Shown here piece after piece: positions 2 to 55,353 of a DNA stretch of 64,000 bases. Source of the stretch: Escherichia phage QL01; the sequence record NC_028847.1. The stretch is one strand, 5' to 3'. The position numbers were made by a program, and so were the translations under genes. How positions within the stretch are numbered: position 1 is the stretch's first letter; every line of letters begins with the position of its first letter. The notes under the pieces were generated by a model, which saw only the letters and a program-made list of their open reading frames with translations, made no database searches and had not been told where the DNA came from.

Positions 2-1858
2 CAGATTACTAATGAAGTTGAACTGGTCGACTTATTTGGAGGTCCTAATAACGAAGTTGCTGATTACTTCATGTCGGGTATGAACTTCCTCCAGTATGGT
101 AACGACCTTCGTACTGTTCGTGTTGTTAACCGTGAATTCGCTAAAAACGCGTCTCCGGTAGCGGGTAACGTCCAAACCACTATTACTACTGCAGGTTCTA
201 ACTATGCGGTAGGCGATAAAATTAATATCAAATATAACCAGACTGTTGTTGAATCTGAAGGTCGTGTGACTTCTGTAGATACGGATGGTAAAATTCTTTC
301 CGTGTTTATCCCATCAGCAAAAATTATTGCTTATGCACGTTCTTTAAACCAGTATCCGAACCTCGGCCCGGCATGGACTGCTGAAGTAACTTCTGCCTCT
401 TCAGGTGTTTCTGGTACTATTACCGTTGGTAAAATCGTAACCGATTCCGGTATTCTTTTGACCGAAGCAGAGAACAGTGAAGAAGCTATTACTTCCCTAG
501 AATTCCAAGCGTCTCTTAAACAGTTTGGTATGCCTGGCGTGGTCGCTCTTTATCCTGGTGAAATTGGCAGCACCTTAGAAGTAGAAATTGTTTCTAAAGC
601 AGCTTATGATGTCGGTTCTTCTAAAATGCTGGATATTTATCCTGGCGGTGGTACCCGTGCTTCTATTGCCAAGGCAGTATTTAACTACGGCCCACAAACA
701 GATGACCAATACGCAATTATTGTTCGTCGTGATGGCGCTATCGTAGAATCTGTCGTACTTTCTACCAAAGAAGGTGAAAAAGACGTTTACGGTAATAACA
801 TTTATCTTGACGACTATTTCGCTAAAGGTACTTCTAACTATATTTTTGCTACCTCTTTGAATTGGCCTAAAGGCTTCAGTGGTATCATCAATCTTATGGG
901 TGGTGTATCTGCTAACGATCAGGTTACTGCGAGTGATTTGATGCAGGGTTGGGATTTGTTTGCCGACCGTGAAGCACTCCATATTAACCTTTTGATTGCT
1001 GGTGCTGTTGCCGGTGAAGGTGATGAAGTTGCTTCTACCGTCCAGAAACACGTTGTTAGTATTGCTGATGAACGTCAGGATTGCTTGGCATTTATTTCTC
1101 CTCCTAAAGGACTGTTGGTTAACGTTCCATTGACTCGTGCAGTAGATAATCTTATCGACTGGCGTACCGGTGCAGGTACTTTCGATACCAACAACATGAA
1201 CATTAGCACCACTTATGCTGCTATTGATGGTAACTATAAATATCAGTATGACAAATATAATGACGTAAACCGTTGGGTGCCTCTGGCCGCTGATATGGCT
1301 GGTTTGTGTGCACGTACTGATGATGTTTCTCAGCCTTGGATGTCTCCGGCAGGTTATAACCGTGGCCAGATTCTTAACGTTCTGAAATTGGCAATTGAAC
1401 CGCGCCAAGCTCAACGTGACCGCATGTACCAAGAAGCTATTAACCCAGTTGTTGGTTTTGCTGGTGGCGATGGTTTCGTATTGTTTGGTGATAAGACTGC
1501 AACCAAAGTTCCATCTCCGATGGACCACATTAACGTTCGCCGTCTGTTCAACATGCTTAAGAAAAATATCGGTGATGCCTCTAAATATAAACTGTTTGAA
1601 TTGAACGACAACTTCACTCGTTCAAGCTTCCGTATGGAAGTTTCTCAGTACTTAGATGGTATTAAGGCACTTGGTGGGATTTATGAAGGACGCGTGGTTT
1701 GTGATACTACAGTGAACACCCCTGCGGTTATTGACCGTAACGAGTTTATTGCTAATATATACATCAAACCGGCGAGATCGATAAATTATATCACTCTTAA
1801 TTTCGTGGCTACTTCTACCGGTGCAGATTTTGACGAGTTGATTGGACCACTAGTTTAA
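2..1858 (+). CDS. 18: tail sheath protein gp18 (5' partial; frame open to window start)
   Basis: ORF has no stop upstream of 71 back to position 2; long ORF immediately upstream of gp19 tail tube gene; T4 gene order. Confidence 0.85.
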   Translation, partial: QITNEVELVDLFGGPNNEVADYFMSGMNFLQYGNDLRTVRVVNREFAKNASPVAGNVQTTITTAGSNYAVGDKINIKYNQTVVESEGRVTSVDTDGKILSVFIPSAKIIAYARSLNQYPNLGPAWTAEVTSASSGVSGTITVGKIVTDSGILLTEAENSEEAITSLEFQASLKQFGMPGVVALYPGEIGSTLEVEIVSKAAYDVGSSKMLDIYPGGGTRASIAKAVFNYGPQTDDQYAIIVRRDGAIVESVVLSTKEGEKDVYGNNIYLDDYFAKGTSNYIFATSLNWPKGFSGIINLMGGVSANDQVTASDLMQGWDLFADREALHINLLIAGAVAGEGDEVASTVQKHVVSIADERQDCLAFISPPKGLLVNVPLTRAVDNLIDWRTGAGTFDTNNMNISTTYAAIDGNYKYQYDKYNDVNRWVPLAADMAGLCARTDDVSQPWMSPAGYNRGQILNVLKLAIEPRQAQRDRMYQEAINPVVGFAGGDGFVLFGDKTATKVPSPMDHINVRRLFNMLKKNIGDASKYKLFELNDNFTRSSFRMEVSQYLDGIKALGGIYEGRVVCDTTVNTPAVIDRNEFIANIYIKPARSINYITLNFVATSTGADFDELIGPLV

Positions 1859-1888
1859 GTTTACTTGCTCTAAGCTTTATGGTATAAT
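1859..1888 (+). promoter_or_regulatory. sigma70-type early promoter (GTTTAC-N18-TATAAT) whose -10 overlaps ATG of HNH ORF
   Basis: Motif read directly after gene 18 stop; coordinates approximate. Confidence 0.5.
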
Positions 1889-2543
1889 GCGCGTATACAC
1901 AATACGCGCAAGGATTTCTAAAGTGATTATTACTAAATTTGTTGATGTAAAAATAAATACTAACAATTACAGTTATTTCTTAGACTTAGGGTATGAGTTG
2001 GAACCTCTAGGAGCACCGAAGCATGGGCATAAGTGCCAAACTATTCGAGCAAAAGTTTCTGATTTAAAGGATGGTTCTAATAAAGAAGTTCAATGTATCT
2101 GCGATAAATGTGGCACAGAATTCAAACAAAGGATTGCTAGAAATACCGATGTATGTTATCCTTGTAGGCGTCATGAAGCTCTTATAGGTAACACCAACGG
2201 TAAAGCTAATAAAGGTAAAACTCTACCTCATATGCAAGGTGAAAACCATCCAAGATGGAACCCTAATAAATCTGAATACTTTGCTTATGCATCAAAGGTT
2301 AGAGCTGTTACTTATGCTTGTAAAGACGAGTGGATGGCTTGGGAAAATGCAGATAAAATAGGGTTATGTGGAGTTGAAGGTGCTTACCAATTAGACCATA
2401 AGGTTTCAGTAGCTTATGGATTCTATAACCATATCCCAGCAGAGATAATTGGACAATTATCAAATTTAGAAATAATCACTTGGGAATCCAATAGAGCTAA
2501 AAGTAAGTCTAGTTCAATAGACTTATGGGACTTACTATCCTAA
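1887..2543 (+). CDS. HNH homing endonuclease-like protein (CxxC...CxxC zinc finger plus HNH-type motif LDHK...N...)
   Basis: Translation contains C-x2-C ... C-x2-C and a His/Asn-rich C-terminal motif typical of phage HNH endonucleases; inserted between genes 18 and 19; true start uncertain (ATG 1887 or in-frame GTG ~1923). Confidence 0.65.
   Translation: MRVYTIRARISKVIITKFVDVKINTNNYSYFLDLGYELEPLGAPKHGHKCQTIRAKVSDLKDGSNKEVQCICDKCGTEFKQRIARNTDVCYPCRRHEALIGNTNGKANKGKTLPHMQGENHPRWNPNKSEYFAYASKVRAVTYACKDEWMAWENADKIGLCGVEGAYQLDHKVSVAYGFYNHIPAEIIGQLSNLEIITWESNRAKSKSSSIDLWDLLS
1889..1909 (+). promoter_or_regulatory. GC-rich perfect hairpin (GCGCGTAT-ACACA-ATACGCGC) inside first codons of HNH ORF
   Basis: 8-bp inverted repeat seen in sequence; could sequester translation start. 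Confidence 0.45.
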
Positions 2544-2687
2544 ATAAATTATATCTCCTTAATCTATTATCCCAGGCTGTAATATAAAGAACCTAAAACC
2601 ATTATACCATGAGTTTGGTTACAGCGTACATCACGCAGAATTGCGCCTGGGGTTGATTATTCTTTAGGAATATGATTTATCAACTGT

Positions 2688-2695
2688 TATAAATA
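2688..2695 (+). promoter_or_regulatory. late promoter TATAAATA (gene 19)
   Basis: Exact T4 late promoter consensus about 55 bp upstream of gene 19 ATG. Confidence 0.6.
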
Positions 2696-2708
2696 AATTA
2701 ATCAGAAC

Positions 2709-2729
2709 GTTCCTGGTGTGTCCAGGAAC
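2709..2729 (+). promoter_or_regulatory. hairpin (GTTCCTGG-TGTGT-CCAGGAAC) in gene 19 leader
   Basis: 8-bp perfect inverted repeat between late promoter and SD. Confidence 0.45.
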
Positions 2730-2747
2730 TGACTTAAGAGGCATCCC

Positions 2748-3239
2748 ATGGAGTTGACAGATATCACTCGTGCATTTGAGTCAGGTGACTTTGCACGCCC
2801 TAACCTTTTCGAAGTGGAAATTCCATTTCTTGGTAAAAACTTTAGCTTTAAATGTAAAGCAGCACCAATGCCTGCTGGCATTGTAGAAAAAGTACCGGTT
2901 GGCTACATGAACCGTAAAATTAACGTAGCTGGTGACCGTACGTTTGATGATTGGACAATTACCATTTATAACGATGATGCACATGACACCCGTCAAGCAA
3001 TTGTCGATTGGCAGAATCTCTGTCACGGTATGACCAATGAAATTACCGGTGCAGCACCTGCAGAATATAAGAAACAAGCAGTAGTTCGCCAGTTCCATCG
3101 TGACGGCAAGACTGTGACCAAAGAAGTTACAATTTACGGCTTATGGCCTACTAACGTTGGTGAAGTCCAGATGGACTGGGACTCGAATAACGAGGTAGAA
3201 ACATTTGAAAGCACATTTGCTATTGACTGGTGGGAATAA
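2748..3239 (+). CDS. 19: tail tube protein gp19
   Basis: 163 aa, near-identical blocks to T4 gp19 (TRAFESGDFARPNLF..., LWPTNVGE...DWDSNNE). Confidence 0.96.
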   Translation: MELTDITRAFESGDFARPNLFEVEIPFLGKNFSFKCKAAPMPAGIVEKVPVGYMNRKINVAGDRTFDDWTITIYNDDAHDTRQAIVDWQNLCHGMTNEITGAAPAEYKKQAVVRQFHRDGKTVTKEVTIYGLWPTNVGEVQMDWDSNNEVETFESTFAIDWWE

Positions 3240-3268
3240 GTTTTTACTTTTATAGCAAATTATGATAG

Positions 3269-3276
3269 TATAAATA
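3269..3276 (+). promoter_or_regulatory. late promoter TATAAATA (GIY-YIG endonuclease gene)
   Basis: Consensus motif about 30 bp upstream of ATG 3307. Confidence 0.55.
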
Positions 3277-3306
3277 CATTCAAACAATGAAGTCAAGGAG
3301 TTTAGA

Positions 3307-3888
3307 ATGTATTGTACTTACTTAACCATATACACGGGGTCTAAACTACCCCGTCGTTATATTGGCTCAACATACGTTGAAAGGATTCTCAAAGAAGGAT
3401 ATAATGGTTCTGTATTATCCCAAGCATATAAAAAGATTTGGAATCTAGAACGTAAAGAAAATCCGCACCTTTTCAAAACCAGAATTTTATCTTTATTTGA
3501 AACCGATAAAGAAGCTCGTATAGCTGAGAAAGAGCTTCAAATAAAGTATAATGTAGTTAAATCTAAAAACTATATAAATATGTCATTAGCTCAGCCTGAC
3601 GGGTTCTTTGGAATGTCTCGTAAAGGGATTCCAATGAGTGAACATGCCAAACAGCTACAAAGAGATTGTAGGTTAGGTAAAAAGAGGCCTGAACATTCTA
3701 AAGCTCTAAAAGGACGTAAGCGACCAGACCAAGCCAAAGCTATGTCTGGTGAAGGTAATCCGATGTTTGGTAAAGAACATCCGGCTAAAGGCAAAAAGAT
3801 TAATCAGCCAAGGATGATTTGCCCTATCTGTGGTGTTGAATCAACTCGTTCGGCTATAACACGTTATCACAAACATGAAAATGAATGA
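3307..3888 (+). CDS. GIY-YIG (Seg-like) homing endonuclease
   Basis: N-terminal YLTIY...RRYIGST matches GIY-x10-YIG motif; basic C-terminal DNA-binding region; preceded by TATAAATA and AAGGAG SD. Confidence 0.7.
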   Translation: MYCTYLTIYTGSKLPRRYIGSTYVERILKEGYNGSVLSQAYKKIWNLERKENPHLFKTRILSLFETDKEARIAEKELQIKYNVVKSKNYINMSLAQPDGFFGMSRKGIPMSEHAKQLQRDCRLGKKRPEHSKALKGRKRPDQAKAMSGEGNPMFGKEHPAKGKKINQPRMICPICGVESTRSAITRYHKHENE

Positions 3889-3889
3889 G

Positions 3890-3897
3890 TATAAATA
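3890..3897 (+). promoter_or_regulatory. late promoter TATAAATA (gene 20)
   Basis: Consensus motif immediately after endonuclease stop. Confidence 0.55.
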
Positions 3898-3905
3898 GAA
3901 TTATC

Positions 3906-3923
3906 AAGGAGCTTCGGCTCCTT
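3906..3923 (+). terminator. UUCG-tetraloop hairpin (AAGGAGC-UUCG-GCUCCUU) between endonuclease gene and gene 20
   Basis: Perfect 7-bp stem with UUCG loop seen in sequence. Confidence 0.5.
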
Positions 3924-3945
3924 ATCCCATTCATCGGAGACTCTA

Positions 3946-5520
3946 ATGGCAAACTTTAATACAATATTAAGTTTTCTTAAGCCATGGGCTAATGAAGACG
4001 AAAAAGAATATAAACAACAAATTAATAACAATTTAGAGTCTGTCACCGCACCTAAGCTTGATGATGGCGCTCGCGAAATTGAGACACAAGAGCAAAATAT
4101 TCCTTATAATGCTCTTATGCAACAGATGTTTGGTAGTAATGAGCCTGAAGTTAAAAATACCAGGGAACTTATTGATACCTACCGTAATTTAATGAACAAC
4201 TATGAAGTCGACAACGCCGTACAGGAAATTGTGTCTGACGCTATTGTCTATGAGGATGATAAAGAAGTAGTTGCATTGAATTTAGACGGGACAGAATTTA
4301 GTCAAGCAATTAAAGATAAAATCTTGGCCGAATTCAGTGAAGTTTTAAACCTTTTAAATTTCCAACGTAAAGGTACTGACCATTTCCAACGCTGGTATGT
4401 AGACTCAAGAATTTTCTTTCATAAAATTATAAACCCTAAAAAAATGAAAGATGGCGTACAAGAGCTTCGTCGCTTAGACCCACGCCAAGTCCAATATATT
4501 CGTGAAATCGTTACACGTATGGAAGATGGCGTTAAAGTTGTAGACGGATATCGCGAGTTTTTCGTTTATGATACAGGCCATGAAAGTTATTGCGCTGATG
4601 GACGCATTTATTCAGCCGGGACTAAAGTTAAAATTCCTCGTGCTGCAGTGGTTTATGCTCATTCTGGATTATTAGATTGTTGTGGTAAAAACATCATTGG
4701 CTATTTGCAACGTGCTATTAAGCCTGCAAACCAGCTTAAATTGATGGAAGACGCAATGGTCATCTACCGTATTACACGTGCTCCTGACCGTCGTGTGTTT
4801 TATATCGATACAGGTAATATGCCTTCACGTAAGGCTGCAGCACAAATGCAACATATCATGAACACGATGAAAAACCGTGTGGTGTATGATGCTTCGACAG
4901 GTAAAATTAAAAACCAACAACACAATATGTCCATGACTGAAGACTATTGGTTGCAACGTCGTGATGGTAAAGCGGTAACAGAAGTTGATACAATGCCAGG
5001 TGCTACTGGTATGAGTGATATGGATGACGTTCTTTATTTCCGCACAGCACTTTACCGTGCGTTGCGTGTTCCTGAATCACGTATCCCTAGCGAGTCTAAT
5101 TCTGGTGTTATGTTTGATGCCGGTACAGCAATCACTCGTGACGAATTAAAATTCTCTAAATGGATTCGTCAACTACAAAACAAATTTGAAGAAATTTTCC
5201 TAGACCCGTTAAAAACAAACCTCATTCTTAAAAAGATTATTACAGAAGATGAGTGGGAAAAGGAAATAAATAATATTAAAGTTACGTTTAACCGTGATAG
5301 CTATTTCAGTGAAATGAAAGATGCTGAAATCATGGAACGCAGAATCAATATGCTAACGATGGCTGAACCATTTATTGGTAAGTATATTTCACATCAAACG
5401 GCTATGAAAGATTTCCTCCAAATGACCGACGAAGAAATTAATCAAGAAGCTAAGCAAATTGAAGAAGAGTCTAAAGAGGCTCGTTTCCAAAACCCAGATG
5501 AAGAAGAAGAGGATTTCTAA
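3946..5520 (+). CDS. 20: portal vertex protein gp20
   Basis: 524 aa, same length as T4 gp20 as recalled; position after gene 19. Confidence 0.93.
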
Positions 5521-7695: not shown

Positions 7696-9255
7696 ATGAA
7701 AAAGAATGCATTAGTTCAAAAATGGTCCGCTCTGCTGGAAAACGAAGCCCTTCCTGAAATCGTGGGTGCTTCTAAACAAGCTATCATCGCTAAAATTTTC
7801 GAAAACCAGGAACAAGACATCCTGACTGCTCCGGAATACCGTGATGAAAAAATCTCTGAAGCATTTGGTTCTTTCCTGACCGAAGCTGAAATTGGTGGTG
7901 ACCACGGTTATGATGCTACCAATATCGCAGCTGGCCAGACTTCTGGTGCTGTAACTCAGATTGGGCCGGCAGTAATGGGTATGGTTCGTCGTGCTATTCC
8001 TCATCTGATTGCTTTTGATATTTGTGGTGTTCAGCCTCTGAATAACCCTACCGGCCAGGTATTTGCCCTTCGTGCAGTTTATGGTAAAGACCCTATCGCT
8101 TCTGGCGCTAAAGAAGCTTTCCATCCGATGTATTCTCCAGACGCTATGTTCTCTGGTCAGGGTGCTGCTGAAACTTTCGAAGCACTGGCTGCAAGCAAAG
8201 TTCTGGAAGTTGGTAAAATTTATTCTCACTTCTTCGAAGCTACCGGTGCTGCACACTTCCAGGCTGTCGAAGCCGTAACCGTTGATGCTGCTGCTACTGA
8301 TGCCGCTAAACTGGATGCTGCTGTTACCGCTTTGATTGAAGCTGGTAAGTTGGCTGAATTGGCTGAAGGTATGGCTACTTCTATCGCTGAACTTCAGGAA
8401 GGCTTTAACGGTTCTACCGATAACCCGTGGAACGAAATGGGCTTCCGCATCGACAAACAAGTTATCGAAGCTAAATCCCGTCAGCTGAAAGCAAGCTACT
8501 CTATCGAACTGGCACAGGACCTTCGTGCAGTACACGGTATGGATGCAGATGCTGAACTGTCCGGTATCCTTGCTACCGAAATTATGCTCGAAATCAACCG
8601 TGAAGTTATCGATTGGATTAACTACTCTGCACAGGTTGGTAAATCTGGTATGACCAACACCGTTGGCGCTAAAGCTGGTGTGTTTGACTTCCAGGACCCG
8701 ATTGATATCCGTGGTGCTCGTTGGGCCGGTGAGAGCTTTAAAGCCCTTCTGTTCCAGATTGATAAAGAAGCAGCCGAAATCGCTCGTCAGACCGGTCGTG
8801 GTGCTGGTAACTTCATCATCGCTTCCCGTAACGTAGTTAACGTACTGGCTGCAGTTGATACTTCTGTAAGTTATGCAGCTCAAGGTCTGGGTCAAGGTTT
8901 CAACGTTGACACAACCAAAGCAGTATTTGCCGGTGTTCTTGGTGGTAAATATCGCGTTTACATCGACCAGTATGCACGTTCCGATTACTTCACCATCGGT
9001 TATAAAGGCGCTAACGAAATGGACGCAGGTATCTACTATGCTCCGTACGTTGCACTGACCCCGCTGCGTGGTTCCGATCCGAAGAACTTCCAACCGGTAA
9101 TGGGCTTCAAAACTCGTTACGGTATCGGTATCAACCCGTTCGCTGACCCTGCTGCTCAGGCTCCTACCAAACGTATCCAGAATGGTATGCCTGACATCGT
9201 TAACAGCCTTGGTCTGAATGGTTACTTCCGTCGCGTATATGTTAAAGGTATCTAA
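7696..9255 (+). CDS. 23: major capsid protein gp23
   Basis: 519 aa; long stretches identical to T4 gp23 (SKQAIIAKIFENQE, AEIGGDHGY, TSGAVTQIGPAVMGMVRRAIP, YYAPYVALTPLRGSDPKNFQPVMGFKTRYGIGINPFA). Confidence 0.98.
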   Translation: MKKNALVQKWSALLENEALPEIVGASKQAIIAKIFENQEQDILTAPEYRDEKISEAFGSFLTEAEIGGDHGYDATNIAAGQTSGAVTQIGPAVMGMVRRAIPHLIAFDICGVQPLNNPTGQVFALRAVYGKDPIASGAKEAFHPMYSPDAMFSGQGAAETFEALAASKVLEVGKIYSHFFEATGAAHFQAVEAVTVDAAATDAAKLDAAVTALIEAGKLAELAEGMATSIAELQEGFNGSTDNPWNEMGFRIDKQVIEAKSRQLKASYSIELAQDLRAVHGMDADAELSGILATEIMLEINREVIDWINYSAQVGKSGMTNTVGAKAGVFDFQDPIDIRGARWAGESFKALLFQIDKEAAEIARQTGRGAGNFIIASRNVVNVLAAVDTSVSYAAQGLGQGFNVDTTKAVFAGVLGGKYRVYIDQYARSDYFTIGYKGANEMDAGIYYAPYVALTPLRGSDPKNFQPVMGFKTRYGIGINPFADPAAQAPTKRIQNGMPDIVNSLGLNGYFRRVYVKGI

Positions 9256-9270
9256 GATATAACCTTATTA

Positions 9271-9290
9271 TGGGAGACTTCGGTCTCCCA
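9271..9290. terminator. bidirectional UUCG-tetraloop hairpin terminator after gene 23 (UGGGAGAC-UUCG-GUCUCCCA)
   Basis: Perfect palindrome followed by T-rich tract; lies between convergent gene 23 and the minus-strand small ORF. Confidence 0.65.
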
Positions 9291-9304
9291 TTCTTGTTTC
9301 TGTA

Positions 9305-9571
9305 TTATGCAATCTTAACTCGGCGGTTGATGATATCACGGAAGTCAATACGATTTTCTTGGATTTTCAGCCAGTTACCAGATTTGTCTTTGGTATGGGT
9401 AGAGTATTCACCGTTCCACCAGAAGTCGGTAGCATAAGCCATGGCTTCGTATTTCTTAACTAAGGCATTCACTGCATTACCATTAGGATTGTTACCGAAT
9501 TTTTCTACCAGAGCTTTGATGTCTTTATCAAGAGCGGAAAGAGTAGTACGAATAAAGTTTAACTTGTTCAT
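9305..9571 (-). CDS. hypothetical protein (early-promoter small ORF antisense to capsid genes)
   Basis: ORF with GAGGAG SD before internal ATG (MNKLNFIRTT...); preceded on minus strand by GTTTAC-N18-TACTAT promoter; no recognisable family. Confidence 0.55.
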   Translation of the reverse strand: MNKLNFIRTTLSALDKDIKALVEKFGNNPNGNAVNALVKKYEAMAYATDFWWNGEYSTHTKDKSGNWLKIQENRIDFRDIINRRVKIA

Positions 9572-9600
9572 TTTTAATCTCCTCATGTTTTGATAGGTCT

Positions 9601-9630
9601 ATAGTAACATGTGAGAATCTTGCTGTAAAC
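9601..9630 (-). promoter_or_regulatory. early promoter GTTTAC-N18-TACTAT (drives 9305..9571 ORF)
   Basis: Motif on minus strand; same extended TACTATAGACCTATCAA pattern as other early promoters in window. Confidence 0.55.
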
Positions 9631-9636
9631 AACTTT

Positions 9637-9644
9637 TATAAATA
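9637..9644 (+). promoter_or_regulatory. late promoter TATAAATA (gene 24)
   Basis: Consensus about 30 bp upstream of gene 24 ATG. Confidence 0.6.
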
Positions 9645-9672
9645 AACATATACCCTCAATAAGGAAAGCGCA

Positions 9673-10956
9673 ATGGCAAAGATTAACGAATTACTGCGCG
9701 AGTCAACAACTACTTCCAGCAACTCATTGGGTCGCCCTAATCTTGTTGCTTTGACCCGTGCTACAACCAAATTGATTTACCGTGATATTATCGCCGAACA
9801 ACGTACTAGCCAGCCTATTGCTGCACTGTATGGTGTCAAATATCTTACCCCTGATAATGAATTTAGTTTCCAGACAGGTGCCTCTTATGGTGGTGAAGTT
9901 GGTTCTAAAGACCGTGAAACTATCCCAGAACTCACAGATAAGGCCCAGGCGATTGCTCAGGGTGAATATTTCAAGTACCAGAATGTGGTTTATAAGGCTC
10001 TTAAAGCAAGCCCACTCGCGTCCACTAGCGCCACAGAATTGGCTGAGGCTCTTCAAGAAGGTTTAGTGTCATTAACATGTCGTCTGGTTCCTGATGCTGC
10101 CCATACCACTAAATTTGAAGCGAGTGATGTAGAAATCTCTGATGCTGTATTCCAGGTTAATAAATGGAATGCTCCGGTTAAGACCCGTAAATTGAAGACG
10201 GCTTTGACTGTAGAATTAGCGCAGGATATGGAATCAAATGGCTTTGACGCGCCGGCGTTCTTAGAAGACCTCTTGGCTACAGTAATGGCAGATGAAATTA
10301 ATAAAGACGTTCTGCAATCTCTAATAACCGTATCCAAACGTTATAAAGTTACTGGTGTATCTGATAACGGCATCATCGATTTGTCTTATGACAGTGCTCC
10401 TGAATCTGCACGTAAACTTTATGAACTCGTTTGTGAGATGAATTCTGAAATCCAGAAAACTACTTCTTATTCTGGCACGTTTGTTGTGGCTTCAAGTCGT
10501 GTGGCTGCAATGCTTGCAGGTTCTGGCTGGTTAAAACATAAACCCGAAGATAATAATTGGCTTCCGGAAACTGCATACGGATATTTGTTGAATGGGCTGC
10601 CTCTGTTTTGTGACGTTAACAGTCCATTAGATTATGTTACCGTTGGTGTTAAAGAGAATTACGGCGGTAATGAAGTTGTCGGTTCTATTTTCTACGCTCC
10701 CTATACCGAAGGCTTAGATTTAGATGACCAAGAACACGTCGGTGCTTATAAGGTTATTGTTGACCCGGATTCATTACAACCTTCTATTTCTCTGATGGTT
10801 CGTTATGCACTATCAGCTAACCCGTACACCGTGGCTAAAGACGATAAAGAAGCTCGTGTTATCGATGCAACCAATATGGATTTAATGGCTGGGCAGAGCA
10901 ATATGTCTTATCTGGTTGGCGTTAAACTTCCGGCAATTATTTACGAGGCTGATTAA
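9673..10956 (+). CDS. 24: capsid vertex protein gp24
   Basis: 427 aa; N-terminus MAKINELLRESTTT...GRPNLVALTRATTKLIY matches T4 gp24. Confidence 0.96.
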   Translation: MAKINELLRESTTTSSNSLGRPNLVALTRATTKLIYRDIIAEQRTSQPIAALYGVKYLTPDNEFSFQTGASYGGEVGSKDRETIPELTDKAQAIAQGEYFKYQNVVYKALKASPLASTSATELAEALQEGLVSLTCRLVPDAAHTTKFEASDVEISDAVFQVNKWNAPVKTRKLKTALTVELAQDMESNGFDAPAFLEDLLATVMADEINKDVLQSLITVSKRYKVTGVSDNGIIDLSYDSAPESARKLYELVCEMNSEIQKTTSYSGTFVVASSRVAAMLAGSGWLKHKPEDNNWLPETAYGYLLNGLPLFCDVNSPLDYVTVGVKENYGGNEVVGSIFYAPYTEGLDLDDQEHVGAYKVIVDPDSLQPSISLMVRYALSANPYTVAKDDKEARVIDATNMDLMAGQSNMSYLVGVKLPAIIYEAD

Positions 10957-42527: not shown

Positions 42528-42557
42528 ATTATACTCTGCTCCCAAGAGTTTGTAAAC
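42528..42557 (-). promoter_or_regulatory. early promoter GTTTAC-N18-TATAAT
   Basis: Consensus motif upstream of 42011..42493 ORF, overlapping end of 35-aa ORF. Confidence 0.55.
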
Positions 42558-55324: not shown

Positions 55325-55353
55325 ATTATATCATGGGTTTTAAGGAAGTAAAC
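55325..55353 (-). promoter_or_regulatory. early promoter GTTTAC-N17-TATAAT (rnh)
   Basis: Consensus motif upstream of rnh ATG. Confidence 0.55.

Follow-up and report, generated by a model that had tools for sequence, protein, structure and literature searches.

[quoted passage not shown] T4 MobA and MobE are encoded by optional intergenic genes located by conserved genes, and have an HNH-type motif, presumed nicking, and biased inheritance (PMC2988022). Another arrangement is the promoter-early stem-loop cassette (PeSL) described by Arbiol et al. 2010 (PMC2839356), which in RB49 and phi1 is composed of a stop codon, a sigma-70-like promoter, a stem-loop, a Shine-Dalgarno sequence, and a variable ORF start; a subclass has the stem-loop just downstream of the -10 box, the promoter and terminator activities of PeSLs were demonstrated experimentally, and JS98 was named as having PeSL-like sequences (PMC2839356). 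The closest systems also include the I-HmuI/HNN-type HNH nucleases and small phage HNH nicking enzymes (Gme HNH 4h9d, GVE2 HNH 5h0o), the Hef-like proteins (U5 Hef; LIMEstone1 F-LimVII and F-LimVIII), and ORF19.1 of T6 (PHROG 5104), the earliest deposited member of its family (1994). A literature search on ORF19.1/gene 19.1, where Candida gene names dominate, and on the 18/19 junction returned no functional study of this family.

We analyzed a 64,000-nucleotide stretch (the window) of a JS98-like Dhakavirus, in which a gene lies between gene 18 (tail sheath) and gene 19 (tail tube). We regard it as probable that this is a free-standing optional cassette of the ORF19.1 family, located where the tail sheath gene ends, at its stop codon, which encodes a 206-aa HNH-type homing nuclease behind a PeSL head.

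Comparison with described systems

The gene shares with T6 ORF19.1 and PHROG 5104 full-length homology (43-49% identity), the position after the gene 18 stop codon, the GTG start, and a preceding hairpin, whereas the T6 allele has a type-B N-terminal domain, a GGGGCUUCGGCCCC hairpin, and no clear early promoter. Compared with the T4 Mob proteins, no sequence relation was found (hhalign probability of the family profile against MobE, the only Mob compared, 0.1%), the domain order is reversed (here zinc ribbon N-terminal and HNH C-terminal), and the Pfam HNH model is reached or nearly reached by the Mob proteins but not by our query. Moreover, T4 mobA, C, D, and E are promoter-less, but the gene in the window has its own predicted early promoter.

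PeSLs are found mainly in hyperplastic early regions, where they flank ORFans on both sides (PMC2839356); here a single PeSL-like unit is located in a late virion module, in late-gene direction and before a nuclease gene, and its stem is GCGCGTAT in place of the GGGG/CCCC of typical PeSLs. The T4-type hairpin control of I-TevI, I-TevII, I-TevIII, segB, and Aeh1 mobE is similar in that transcripts from the promoter, here as predicted, begin inside a hairpin formed only by read-through RNA. It differs in that the promoter here is of the early type and the read-through RNA is late, which would reverse the timing, and in that the hairpin here stops one base before the ribosome-binding site, which the T4-type hairpin covers. 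The nearest known case is seg43(25) of Aeromonas phage 25, where the hairpin likewise stops shortly before the ribosome-binding site (PMC2988022). The Acinetobacter-phage alleles of the ORF19.1 family resemble the T4-type control, with TATAAATA inside a hairpin.

Regarding the Hef-like proteins, F-LimVIII is located in the gp18-gp19 interval and the DUF7487 repeat module of these proteins is also present in some ORF19.1 relatives, but the Hef-like nuclease is of the Vsr/DUF559 PD-(D/E)XK type, not HNH. A Hef-like identity was ruled out for the ORF19.1 family, because the Hef-like type combines DUF7487 with a Vsr-type nuclease; the DUF7487 and Vsr/DUF559 domains were absent from the query, and hhalign against F-LimVII and F-LimVIII was not significant.

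Locus, insertion site, and boundaries

Alignment with insert-free relatives placed the insertion point of the cassette at the gene 18 stop codon (Table 1). The 18-19 spacer is 889 nt here versus 185 nt in the insert-free IME08, and the last codons of gene 18 are CCA CTA GTT TAA here versus CCT TTA GTA TAA in IME08. An inserted gene between genes 18 and 19 had been reported in a preliminary description of this DNA, and indeed the gene is optional, present at the 18|19 junction, and missing from most close relatives. The same description took genes 18 and 19 of T4 to be adjacent; no gene separates them, but the 116-nt spacer between them means that they are not strictly so. Similarly, the 204-bp non-coding spacer which it saw behind the inserted gene is non-coding (204 nt at 2544-2747), but about 189 nt of it are the native 18-19 intergenic region, which is also present in insert-free relatives.

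This native region is near-identical in IME08, and also in PSD9, UP19, and Bp7. It contains a conserved folded element at 2571-2651 (fold z = -3.56), the late promoter TATAAATA at 2688-2695, a hairpin at 2709-2729 (-13.6 kcal/mol), and the Shine-Dalgarno sequence of gene 19 at 2736-2741. An Rfam scan of 1800-4000 gave no match.

Table 1. Features of the 18|19 locus, with positions in the window.
Feature	Position	Strand	Remarks
Gene 18, tail sheath	71..1858	+	Left flank; Pfam Gp18_dom_I, Phage_sheath_1, Phage_sheath_1C; 5' end cut by the window
Optional cassette, ~704 bp	1855..2558	+	Alignment with insert-free relatives; boundaries approximate, +/- few nt
Sigma-70 / T4-early-type promoter	1859..1888	+	-35 GTTTAC 1859-1864; TGn 1880-1882; -10 TATAAT 1883-1888; spacing 18 nt
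In-frame ATG	1887..1889	+	Start in the preliminary description and by some gene callers; rejected as functional start
Stem-loop	1888..1910	+	GCGCGTAT / ATACGCGC, loop ACACA, T1888-A1910 closing pair; directly abuts -10
Shine-Dalgarno AAGGA	1910..1914	+	8 nt upstream of GTG; read from sequence
ORF19.1-family gene	1923..2543	+	GTG start, 206 aa; phrog_5104 profile, AlphaFold
CxxC...CxxC zinc ribbon	2100..2165	+	C60, C63, C78, C81 (GTG numbering); near-invariant columns; presumed part of DNA-binding domain
HNH-like beta-beta-alpha core	2394..2501	+	D158-H159, N181-L182, N190, K193
Native 18-19 intergenic region	2559..2747	+	Pushed downstream by the cassette
Gene 19, tail tube	2748..3239	+	Right flank; Pfam Phage_T4_gp19

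Start codon of the ORF19.1-family gene

The 218-aa ORF of the preliminary description exists as an open frame between genes 18 and 19 (1887 to 2543, 218 aa counted from the ATG), but the conserved start is GTG 1923, which shortens the product to 206 aa. Comparison of the alleles points to GTG 1923, not ATG 1887, as the functional start. The sequence AAGTGATTAT, which contains the GTG, was invariant in 7/7 aligned enterobacterial-phage alleles, and AAGGA, AGGA, or GGAG was kept at the Shine-Dalgarno position in relatives. The phrog_5104 profile matched over its positions 1-209 (E = 4.9e-86), starting at residue 13 of the 218-aa frame; the N-terminal extensions before the GTG were unrelated in sequence, and V/M-I-I-S/T-K was conserved. 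The GTG start is annotated in the T6 and PSD9 records, and the T6 record states 'ORF19.1 likely begin by GTG codon' (T6 ORF19.1, 43.6% identity over 205 aa, E = 9e-48, tblastn; PSD9, 98.5%). The upstream ATG was missing in Nispero and COW86c and was followed by a stop codon in VR7; ATG 1887 itself is not conserved, lacks a ribosome-binding site, and contributes its G as the first base of the stem. With GTG 1923 as the start, the promoter and the hairpin would be located upstream of the gene and not over its start.

Promoter and stem-loop

The GTTTAC-N18-TATAAT motif begins 1 nt after the gene 18 stop codon. This pattern occurred 3 times in the 64-kb window versus 0.09 expected, and the -35 box, the 18-nt spacing, and the -10 box were kept in VR7, Nispero, COW86c, and myPSH1140 (five lineages with the window), with differing spacer sequences, all of which supports the promoter that had been proposed at this place. 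The other two GTTTAC-N-TATAAT promoters of the window also have stem-loops.

The stem (1889-1896/1902-1909) is a perfect 8 bp, or 9 bp with T1888-A1910, with a 5-nt loop (-13.4 kcal/mol, z = -4.6). Across 6 phages 97.7% of the cells were paired and 3 pairs were changed on both sides, and at this position myPSH1140 carries CGGCTAC/GTAGCCG, a stem that is unrelated. Thus the perfect 8-bp hairpin noted earlier is real in its pairing and conservation, but its placement over the start codons is not, as it lies upstream of GTG 1923 and covers neither AAGGA nor GTG; AAGGA (1910-1914) and GTG (1923) were unpaired in the minimum-free-energy fold of 1800-1960. The stem-loop has no U-run and a simple terminator scan made no call, and the late promoter TATAAATA was absent from 1859-1922. 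In T6-type carriers the native T4-type hairpin is kept downstream and an extra GGGGCUUCGGCCCC hairpin is present before the gene; the T6-type hairpins have UUCG tetraloops. A GTTTAC/TATAAT promoter is missing from the T6-, S16-, and Acinetobacter-phage alleles located at the same site, and very distant alleles are without any regulatory head.

As the -10 box ends at 1888, normal sigma-70 spacing predicts a transcription start at about 1895 (1893-1897), inside the 5' arm of the stem, so that RNA from this promoter would not contain the hairpin. The preliminary description had proposed that early transcripts lack the ATG but carry the hairpin, in a T4-style sequestration of the start site. This regulatory logic fails, because it depends on ATG 1887 while the comparison points to GTG 1923; moreover, the predicted transcription start is inside the 5' arm, AAGGA and GTG are left unpaired, and the late promoter is not inside the hairpin. 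We found both PeSL traits that were looked for, namely a sigma-70-like promoter between the stop codon and the Shine-Dalgarno/start, and a stable adjoining stem-loop, the position of which agrees with the published subclass behind the -10 box. The head of the cassette fits the already described PeSL type and not a start-codon-hiding device.

Nuclease assignment

The product is a probable HNH-type homing nuclease, judged from conserved residues and the predicted fold. The query carries a D-H...N-L...N..K motif, of which D158, H159, N181, L182, N190, and K193 did not vary among 39-40 sequences and reached at least 90% conservation in a further 144, and the AlphaFold model (mean pLDDT 89.9) contains a beta-beta-alpha unit. 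The query gave a DUF4379 treble-clef match with E = 0.053, and 24/144 relatives gave such matches, the best reaching 7.3e-6. Sub-threshold matches were obtained to HNH_4 in 15/144 relatives (best 19.5 bits vs cut-off 22) and to HNH in 9/144 relatives (best 18.4 vs cut-off 21.4), and in the relative P0174 profile positions 3-47 of 47 were aligned over the motif. Some relatives contained modules that homing enzymes typically have (NUMOD3 or DUF7487), and the BFVD matches included proteins named HNH or homing endonuclease (E = 1e-7 to 1e-4).

The query had no match to a nuclease family in Pfam and NCBIfam and no Pfam HNH match at E <= 1, the family profile found no HNH chain among PDB sequences (zinc-finger noise only), Foldseek of the model against PDB gave no significant match, and hhalign against Acj9 p173 showed no relation. 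The HNH-like protein of the preliminary description is borne out by CxxC...CxxC, the invariant D-H...N...N motif, and the modeled beta-beta-alpha unit, but not by a Pfam/NCBIfam HNH match of the query. We consider that the N-terminal half is most likely a treble-clef-like zinc ribbon for DNA binding and the C-terminal half a putative cysteine-less HNH-type (D-H...N...N) beta-beta-alpha-metal nuclease. The 'other HNH' of T6 in Petrov et al. 2010 was considered as a candidate for ORF19.1 and could not be confirmed; T2 also has one, yet no 18-19 insert.

Distribution and signs of horizontal movement

The ORF19.1 family has long been known from sequence records, and it is patchy at the same junction in many T4-like genera, with mosaic alleles. 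Three phage records have the cassette in common and UP19 carries a chimera of it, but it is missing from the majority of about 49 close records; the Dhakavirus carriers are PSD9, UGJNEcP3/4, and UP19, and most Dhakavirus genomes have no cassette. A homologue directly after gene 18 was present in T6 and about 70/674 Tequatrovirus-level records, and also in VR7, S16, Nispero, COW86c, pSs-1, RB10, and myPSH1140, but T4, T2, and Acj9 have no 18-19 homologue. At the protein level, ORF19.1-type proteins had about 7,700 cluster representatives at E <= 1e-3. The annotation of the family is 'hypothetical' nearly everywhere, and 'homing endonuclease' in two records. Among the 80 closest IMG/VR loci, 35 were flanked directly by gp18 on the upstream side and by gp19 on the downstream side, and a further 16 had one of these neighbours, with gp18 identity to the window of 34 to 89% (median 46%). 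The locus is kept across phages with 34-50% gp18 identity, which old vertical inheritance with losses could also explain.

The traits of free-standing homing endonuclease genes that were tested were found, namely an optional intergenic gene and incongruence with the flanks or mosaic alleles. Presence and absence varied among genomes with 93-98% identical flanks, and the boundaries were clean. The identities of the ORF and gp18 were discordant (VR7, 90% in gp18 and 49% in the ORF; COW86c, 77% in gp18 and 66% in the ORF), two types of N-terminal domain occurred side by side in the same genera, in contrast to the genus-specific 3' end of the gene, and the N- and C-terminal halves of the family proteins had different affinities. 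The comparison of carriers and non-carriers at the 18|19 junction defined neither a cleavage site nor a co-conversion tract nor a polymorphism for immunity. Carrier-specific changes at the end of gene 18 were inconsistent, as the window and PSD9 differ and UP19 keeps CCT TTA, and in Tequatrovirus the non-carrier SA20RB has GCA at the gene 18 end, as carriers do. A search for flanking direct repeats or a second PeSL for excision found only short, probably chance repeats.

Discussion

We presume that the nuclease most likely functions in the manner of the T4 seg and mob genes, and would cut or nick an insert-free 18|19 junction in mixed infection, after which repair would copy the cassette into the related phage; such homing would explain why the gene is always at the 18|19 junction yet patchy in presence. 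The sigma-70-type promoter may give the gene its own transcript, presumably early, which would start inside the 5' arm of the stem and leave AAGGA and GTG free. The stem-loop would then form only in RNA reading through from gene 18, where it would probably serve as a 3' stabiliser or attenuator in place of the native post-gene-18 structure, displaced by 704 bp, and it may, in addition, lower the translation of the nuclease late in infection.

The other readings of the locus seem to us less probable, to differing degrees. An old accessory gene, vertically inherited, lost many times, and not self-mobilising, whose nuclease or DNA-binding product would serve the phage (for instance by keeping out competitors, breaking down foreign DNA, or counteracting defence), would suit the gp18-gp19 position kept in the distant T4-like contigs, between which homing by recombination is implausible, and the failure to find a target site and co-conversion tract. 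We consider it unlikely, however, as it does not sit well with the varying presence between near-identical, cleanly bounded flanks, the incongruent similarity of the ORF and gp18, the mosaic alleles within a genus, the 33%-identical paralogue at a second site of the 18-19 spacer in Bp7 and related phages, or the NUMOD3 or DUF7487 homing-enzyme modules in some members. Movement by PeSL-PeSL recombination (the mini-circle model of Arbiol et al.), with the nuclease as a passenger and not the driver, is more doubtful still: the head follows the textbook PeSL layout (stop codon, -35, -10, stem-loop, Shine-Dalgarno, start) and the two further promoters with stem-loops indicate that such units recur in the genome, but there is a single PeSL, the 3' boundary has no promoter/stem-loop repeat, no long flanking direct repeats exist, alleles without the promoter, or in very distant cases without any head, share the site, and the observed site specificity is far tighter than shuffling predicts.

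Two readings of the hairpin itself have very little in their favor. The start at ATG 1887, with early RNA that carries the hairpin and lacks the ATG, translation only from late read-through, and a hairpin that sequesters the start, agrees with the open frame, with gene callers that use such upstream ATGs (P0001, P0002, P0005, P0012, P0014), and with an in-frame ATG at the hairpin foot in T6-type alleles. It was largely refuted by the comparison, in which conservation and the profile match begin only behind the extensions, VR7, Nispero, and COW86c cannot use this start, and the GTG with its ribosome-binding site is invariant; in addition, a transcription start in the 5' arm, as predicted, means that early RNA cannot carry the hairpin. 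Equally improbable is that the inverted repeat at +1 is a DNA operator for a dimeric repressor, possibly an autorepressing nuclease, with no RNA hairpin, although the palindrome overlaps the predicted transcription start and autorepression of I-TevI via a promoter-overlapping operator is documented (PMC2988022). The stems are wholly different between lineages (GCGCGTAT, TGCACATA, CGGCTAC) and only the pairing is preserved, which is the signature of a structural hairpin and not of a sequence-specific operator, and the UUCG tetraloops of the T6-type hairpins also argue against an operator.

Returning to the homing cassette with a PeSL head, we tentatively suggest a broader possibility, in which the ORF19.1 type is a large, unnamed zinc-ribbon + HNH homing clade that has followed a single target, where the tail sheath gene ends, across the T4 superfamily, and its enterobacterial branch reverses the late-promoter-in-hairpin switch: the nuclease RNA would be early and hairpin-free, and the late gene 18 read-through would be capped or attenuated and poorly translated.

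The current understanding is not overturned by these findings. The annotation would be corrected in start codon and product length, and 'hypothetical protein' would become probable HNH-type homing nuclease, a member of a big putative nuclease family missed by current profile libraries. If the activity is true, ORF19.1 would represent a new free-standing HNH lineage with a defined, highly conserved target, and would offer a natural setting in which to test how a late operon of high expression is insulated by a mobile gene. The cassette also accounts for a common polymorphism in the length of the T4-like virion module, which is otherwise rigid and in which the 18|19 junction is a repeatedly colonised hot spot, occupied by the ORF19.1 type, by the distant paralogue at the second site in Bp7-like phages, and by the Hef-like gene of LIMEstone1.

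Insertion at the junction of genes 18 and 19

DNA matching identified the source of the window as a JS98-like T4 relative (top matches: Dhakavirus phages PSD9, UGJNEcP3/4, UP19, IME08, Bp7 and JS98), and the gene between gene 18 (tail sheath, gp18) and gene 19 (tail tube, gp19) belongs to a family that databases already contain, ORF19.1. The 18-19 spacer is 889 nt in the window and 185 nt in insert-free relatives such as IME08, thus about 704 nt are extra, and among about 49 close records the insert is shared only with PSD9, UGJNEcP3/4 and, as a chimera, UP19. Its left edge is the final codon and stop of gene 18 (native, ...CCT TTA GTA TAA TCTATTATCCC; window, ...CCA CTA GTT TAA GTTTAC...), and its right edge lies about 15 nt past the ORF stop, where a duplicated TTAGTATAATC is still visible in PSD9 and UP19 and the window copy is degraded. 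A non-coding spacer does follow the ORF, as previously described, but it is mostly the native intergenic region, which carries the late promoter, hairpin and ribosome-binding site of gene 19 and is nearly identical between insert carriers and non-carriers.

The native Dhakavirus spacer also contains an 81-nt element closed by CCCAGGC...GCCTGGG, nearly invariant in five phages against 3-7% divergence in the adjoining coding DNA. The fold of the 217-nt spacer has a z of -3.56, and there is no Rfam match; the element may terminate gene 18 transcripts or stabilise their 3' ends, or it may be an RNA not yet recognised as such. In addition, the 12 nt ATAAATTATATC form an exact direct repeat, with one copy within gene 18 and the other directly after the ORF stop. 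The window right junction (TATCTCCTTAATC) is unlike that of PSD9 (TATTATTAGTATAATC) and resembles the gene 18 copy of the repeat, and the gene 19 late-promoter region (2683-2700) is matched at 83% identity by the 18 nt at 2534-2551; templated repair may have left these likenesses, or they may be due to chance.

Positions of features in the window and in related phage records
Feature	Record	Position	Remark
Gene 18 (tail sheath), end	window	1858	
12-nt direct repeat	window	1781-1792; 2544-2555	
-35 box GTTTAC	window	1859-1864	followed by 18-nt spacer
Extended -10 TGn	window	1880-1882	
-10 box TATAAT	window	1883-1888	
Open frame between genes 18 and 19	window	1887-2543	
Perfect stem GCGCGTAT/ATACGCGC	window	1889-1896/1902-1909	
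Native 18-19 intergenic region	window	~2559-2747	remainder of the non-coding spacer
81-nt spacer element	window	2571-2651 (+)	
Gene 19 late promoter TATAAATA	window	2688-2695	in native region
Hairpin	window	2709-2729	in native region
Gene 19 (tail tube), start	window	2748	
TATAAATA upstream of GIY-YIG gene	window	3271-3278	
GIY-YIG/NUMOD3 gene	window	3307-3888 (+)	
Gene 20 (portal)	window	3946-5520	
Gene 20, two CDS	L004 (Bp7)	3948-4271; 4277 onward	
Second GTTTAC-N-TATAAT promoter	window	42528-42557 (-)	
Third GTTTAC-N-TATAAT promoter	window	55325-55353 (-)	
Paralogue	L004 (Bp7)	2041-2712	
Paralogue	L031, L036, L039		
Paralogue	L097 (Serratia 4S)	401-1084	
F-LimVIII	L099 (LIMEstone1)	8128-9918	opposite strand

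Start codon and probable nuclease domain

What the preliminary description observed is largely correct; its interpretation holds for the type of gene but fails for the start codon and the regulatory logic. Judged from conservation, the protein is 206 aa long and starts at GTG 1923, not at the assumed ATG 1887, because seven phages of five genera all have the string AAGTGATTAT unchanged, the encoded N-terminus V/M-I-I-S/T-K-x-V is conserved, an AAGGA precedes the GTG by 8 nt, the PHROG profile match starts at residue 13 of the long frame, and the ATG-initiated extensions proposed by some gene callers (MRVYTIRARISK, MRARTPGAHYKDFQ, MGLRPLFSRKQ, MRGASAPYYCIK) are mutually unrelated. These extensions are translated promoter and hairpin DNA; VR7 has a stop two codons past its ATG, and Nispero and COW86c have no counterpart of the upstream ATG.

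D158-H159, N181-L182, N190 and K193 are invariant and the four zinc-ribbon cysteines nearly so. In the confident AlphaFold model (mean pLDDT 89.9) a strand (155-159) ends in D-H, a second strand (182-186) follows N-L, and a helix (187-193) bears N190. Pfam HNH_4 was matched by 15 of 144 relatives and HNH by 9, on the D-H segment and, in relative P0174, across the whole 47-position profile; NUMOD3 was found in five relatives and DUF7487 in three. BFVD matches included entries named HNH or homing endonuclease (E = 1e-7 to 1e-4). The window protein itself reached no curated threshold, no HNH chain was found in PDB by sequence with the family profile, and Foldseek against PDB gave no significant match. 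These results do not amount to the lack of an HNH fold that would have refuted the claim for this gene, and we regard the assignment, formally a prediction, as probable.

Promoter, hairpin and PeSL

The GTTTAC-N18-TATAAT promoter and the perfect hairpin are present as first described. The motif GTTTAC-N16-18-TATAAT occurs three times in the window (0.09 expected from shuffles), and a looser sigma-70 scan of the window gave no enrichment. The stem is lengthened by a T1888-A1910 pair (-13.4 kcal/mol, z = -4.6). Five lineages (window/UP19, VR7, Nispero, COW86c and myPSH1140) share one plan: gene 18 stop, (G/C)TTTAC or TTGTAC, an 18-nt non-conserved spacer, TA(T/C)AAT, an immediate 8-11 bp stem-loop, ribosome-binding site and GTG. 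Pairing of the stem is preserved in 97.7% of cells, three pairs are altered on both sides (G-C to A-U twice, C-G to U-A once), and a covariation score as high as the observed one arose in just 4 of 500 shuffles. In myPSH1140 the stem at the same place has an entirely different sequence (CGGCTAC/GTAGCCG, -17.4 kcal/mol). No clear promoter is present in the T6, pSs-1, RB10 and S16 alleles, whose GC stem is capped by a UUCG loop, and very distant alleles lack signals altogether, their start lying within a few bases of the gp18 end.

Sigma-70 transcription usually starts 7 nt downstream of the -10 box. The stem starts at or before the last base of this box, therefore the promoter transcript, predicted to begin at about 1895, would lack most of the 5' arm. 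The predicted fold of a 66-nt RNA from 1895 has no stable structure, and in that of read-through RNA (1800-1960) the hairpin forms while AAGGA and GTG are unpaired.

Sequestration of the start site, as in T4 homing endonuclease genes, had been proposed for this hairpin. T4-type control is defined by a hairpin sequestering the ribosome-binding site and a late promoter inside the hairpin (PMC2988022); the window gene has neither, with AAGGA and GTG left free, and its hairpin stops short of the ribosome-binding site, at its immediate upstream side, as does that of the one exception noted, seg43(25) (PMC2988022). The plan instead matches the promoter-early stem-loop (PeSL) cassette of RB49/phi1. 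In that cassette the upstream stop codon is followed by a strong sigma-70-like promoter, a Shine-Dalgarno and the start of a variable ORF, with a stem-loop at any of five places, among them the one directly 3' of the -10 box (PMC2839356). The same study found PeSL promoters very strong, showed by reporter assays that the stem-loops cut read-through like a strong terminator, and mentioned JS98 with PeSL-like sequences (PMC2839356). On its sequence plan, the regulatory head of the window gene is a PeSL. T6 has a new hairpin just after gene 18, and its native late promoter and T4-type hairpin (GGCCTG...CAGGCC) persist on the gene 19 side of the insert; in Acj9, which lacks the insert, gene 18 is directly followed by a GGGGCTTCGGCCCC hairpin. 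From these cases we infer that the cassette stem-loop would mainly serve gene 18 transcripts, in 3' end formation, RNA stabilising or read-through attenuation. It would thereby replace the displaced native structure, leaving expression of the nuclease gene to that gene's own promoter.

The classical T4 arrangement is that of the Acinetobacter-phage alleles (L013 Acj61, L014 AbTZA1), the window having the early-promoter version. Their long hairpin GGCTCTCTATA...TATAGAGAGCC, about 60 nt before 2501, encloses the late promoter TATAAATA upstream of the gene, its outer stem extends to the ribosome-binding region, and the start codon is ATG. The other two window promoters of this motif also have stem-loops. 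In the second, GGAGCA..TGCTCC overlaps the -10 box; in the third, GGACCTCT..AGAGGTTC starts directly after it and the 3' arm includes the Shine-Dalgarno of the downstream ATG, therefore read-through RNA, not promoter RNA, would hide the ribosome-binding site.

Distribution and mobility

Relatives were found by tblastn in 246 phage records, with a homologue directly 3' of gene 18 in VR7 (annotated gp19.1), S16, Nispero, COW86c, pSs-1, RB10, myPSH1140 and LG358. The T6-type insert is present in about 70 of 674 Tequatrovirus-level records and absent from T4 and T2. Among the 80 closest IMG/VR loci (gp18 34-89% identical to that of the window), the gene is in 35 directly preceded by gp18 and directly followed by gp19, in 16 more it has just one of these neighbours, mostly at contig ends, and in one it lies between them but reversed; more distant relatives, in other contexts, have only the C-terminal domain in common. 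A profile search of 1.84 billion representatives gave 7,663 matches at E <= 1e-3 and 129 at E <= 1e-30. Family members of the first search had no precomputed Pfam domains, the window protein is 98.5% identical to a PSD9 'hypothetical protein', two genome records of the family already use the label 'homing endonuclease', and no functional study of the family was found in the searched literature. The family is large, keeps to one junction throughout the T4 superfamily and shows a reversed promoter-in-hairpin geometry, which makes experiments on it reasonable.

The insert is patchy among near-identical genomes, and ORF similarity does not track gp18 similarity (gp18/ORF identity to the window: VR7 90%/49%, COW86c 77%/66%, UP19 96%/50%). 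N-terminal domain type A (window, pSs-1, Nispero, COW86c) and type B (UP19, T6, VR7, myPSH1140) both occur within Tequatrovirus and within Dhakavirus, and the final ~30 residues are genus-specific, a pattern that would be expected from partial gene conversion between alleles. No cleavage site or immunity polymorphism was definable at the junction, and no flanking repeats supported PeSL-mediated excision. By analogy, the gene would work most like the T4 mob genes; its protein has no detectable relation to MobE, and its domain order is reversed.

Other nuclease genes around the tail tube gene

In Bp7, IME540, vB_EcoM_005 and Serratia 4S a paralogue (about 33% identical) with the same CxxC and D-H/N/N motifs lies directly upstream of gene 19, at a second site in the spacer, where its own hairpin and TATAAATA precede it in place of the native late promoter and hairpin. 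In LIMEstone1 the interval holds F-LimVIII, an unrelated Hef-like gene (DUF7487 repeats and a Vsr/DUF559-type nuclease); comparison with the LIMEstone Hef-like proteins led us to reject a Hef-like identity of the window gene. ORF19.1-family relatives P0159 and P0175 have a DUF7487 module too, placed between their Zn ribbon and HNH-like domain, which suggests exchange of DNA-binding modules among nuclease families.

A second free-standing, seg-like endonuclease gene (GIY-YIG/NUMOD3) lies between genes 19 and 20 (phrog_314 'homing endonuclease', E = 1e-29; weak SegE_GIY-YIG and NUMOD3 matches), shared with Bp7 and absent from PSD9, UP19 and IME08. Therefore, in this phage an optional nuclease gene lies on each side of the tail tube gene, a combination found in no other single record among those retrieved. 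Portal gene 20 is one 524-aa ORF in the window and two CDS in the Bp7 record, where the split is probably a sequencing or annotation artefact.
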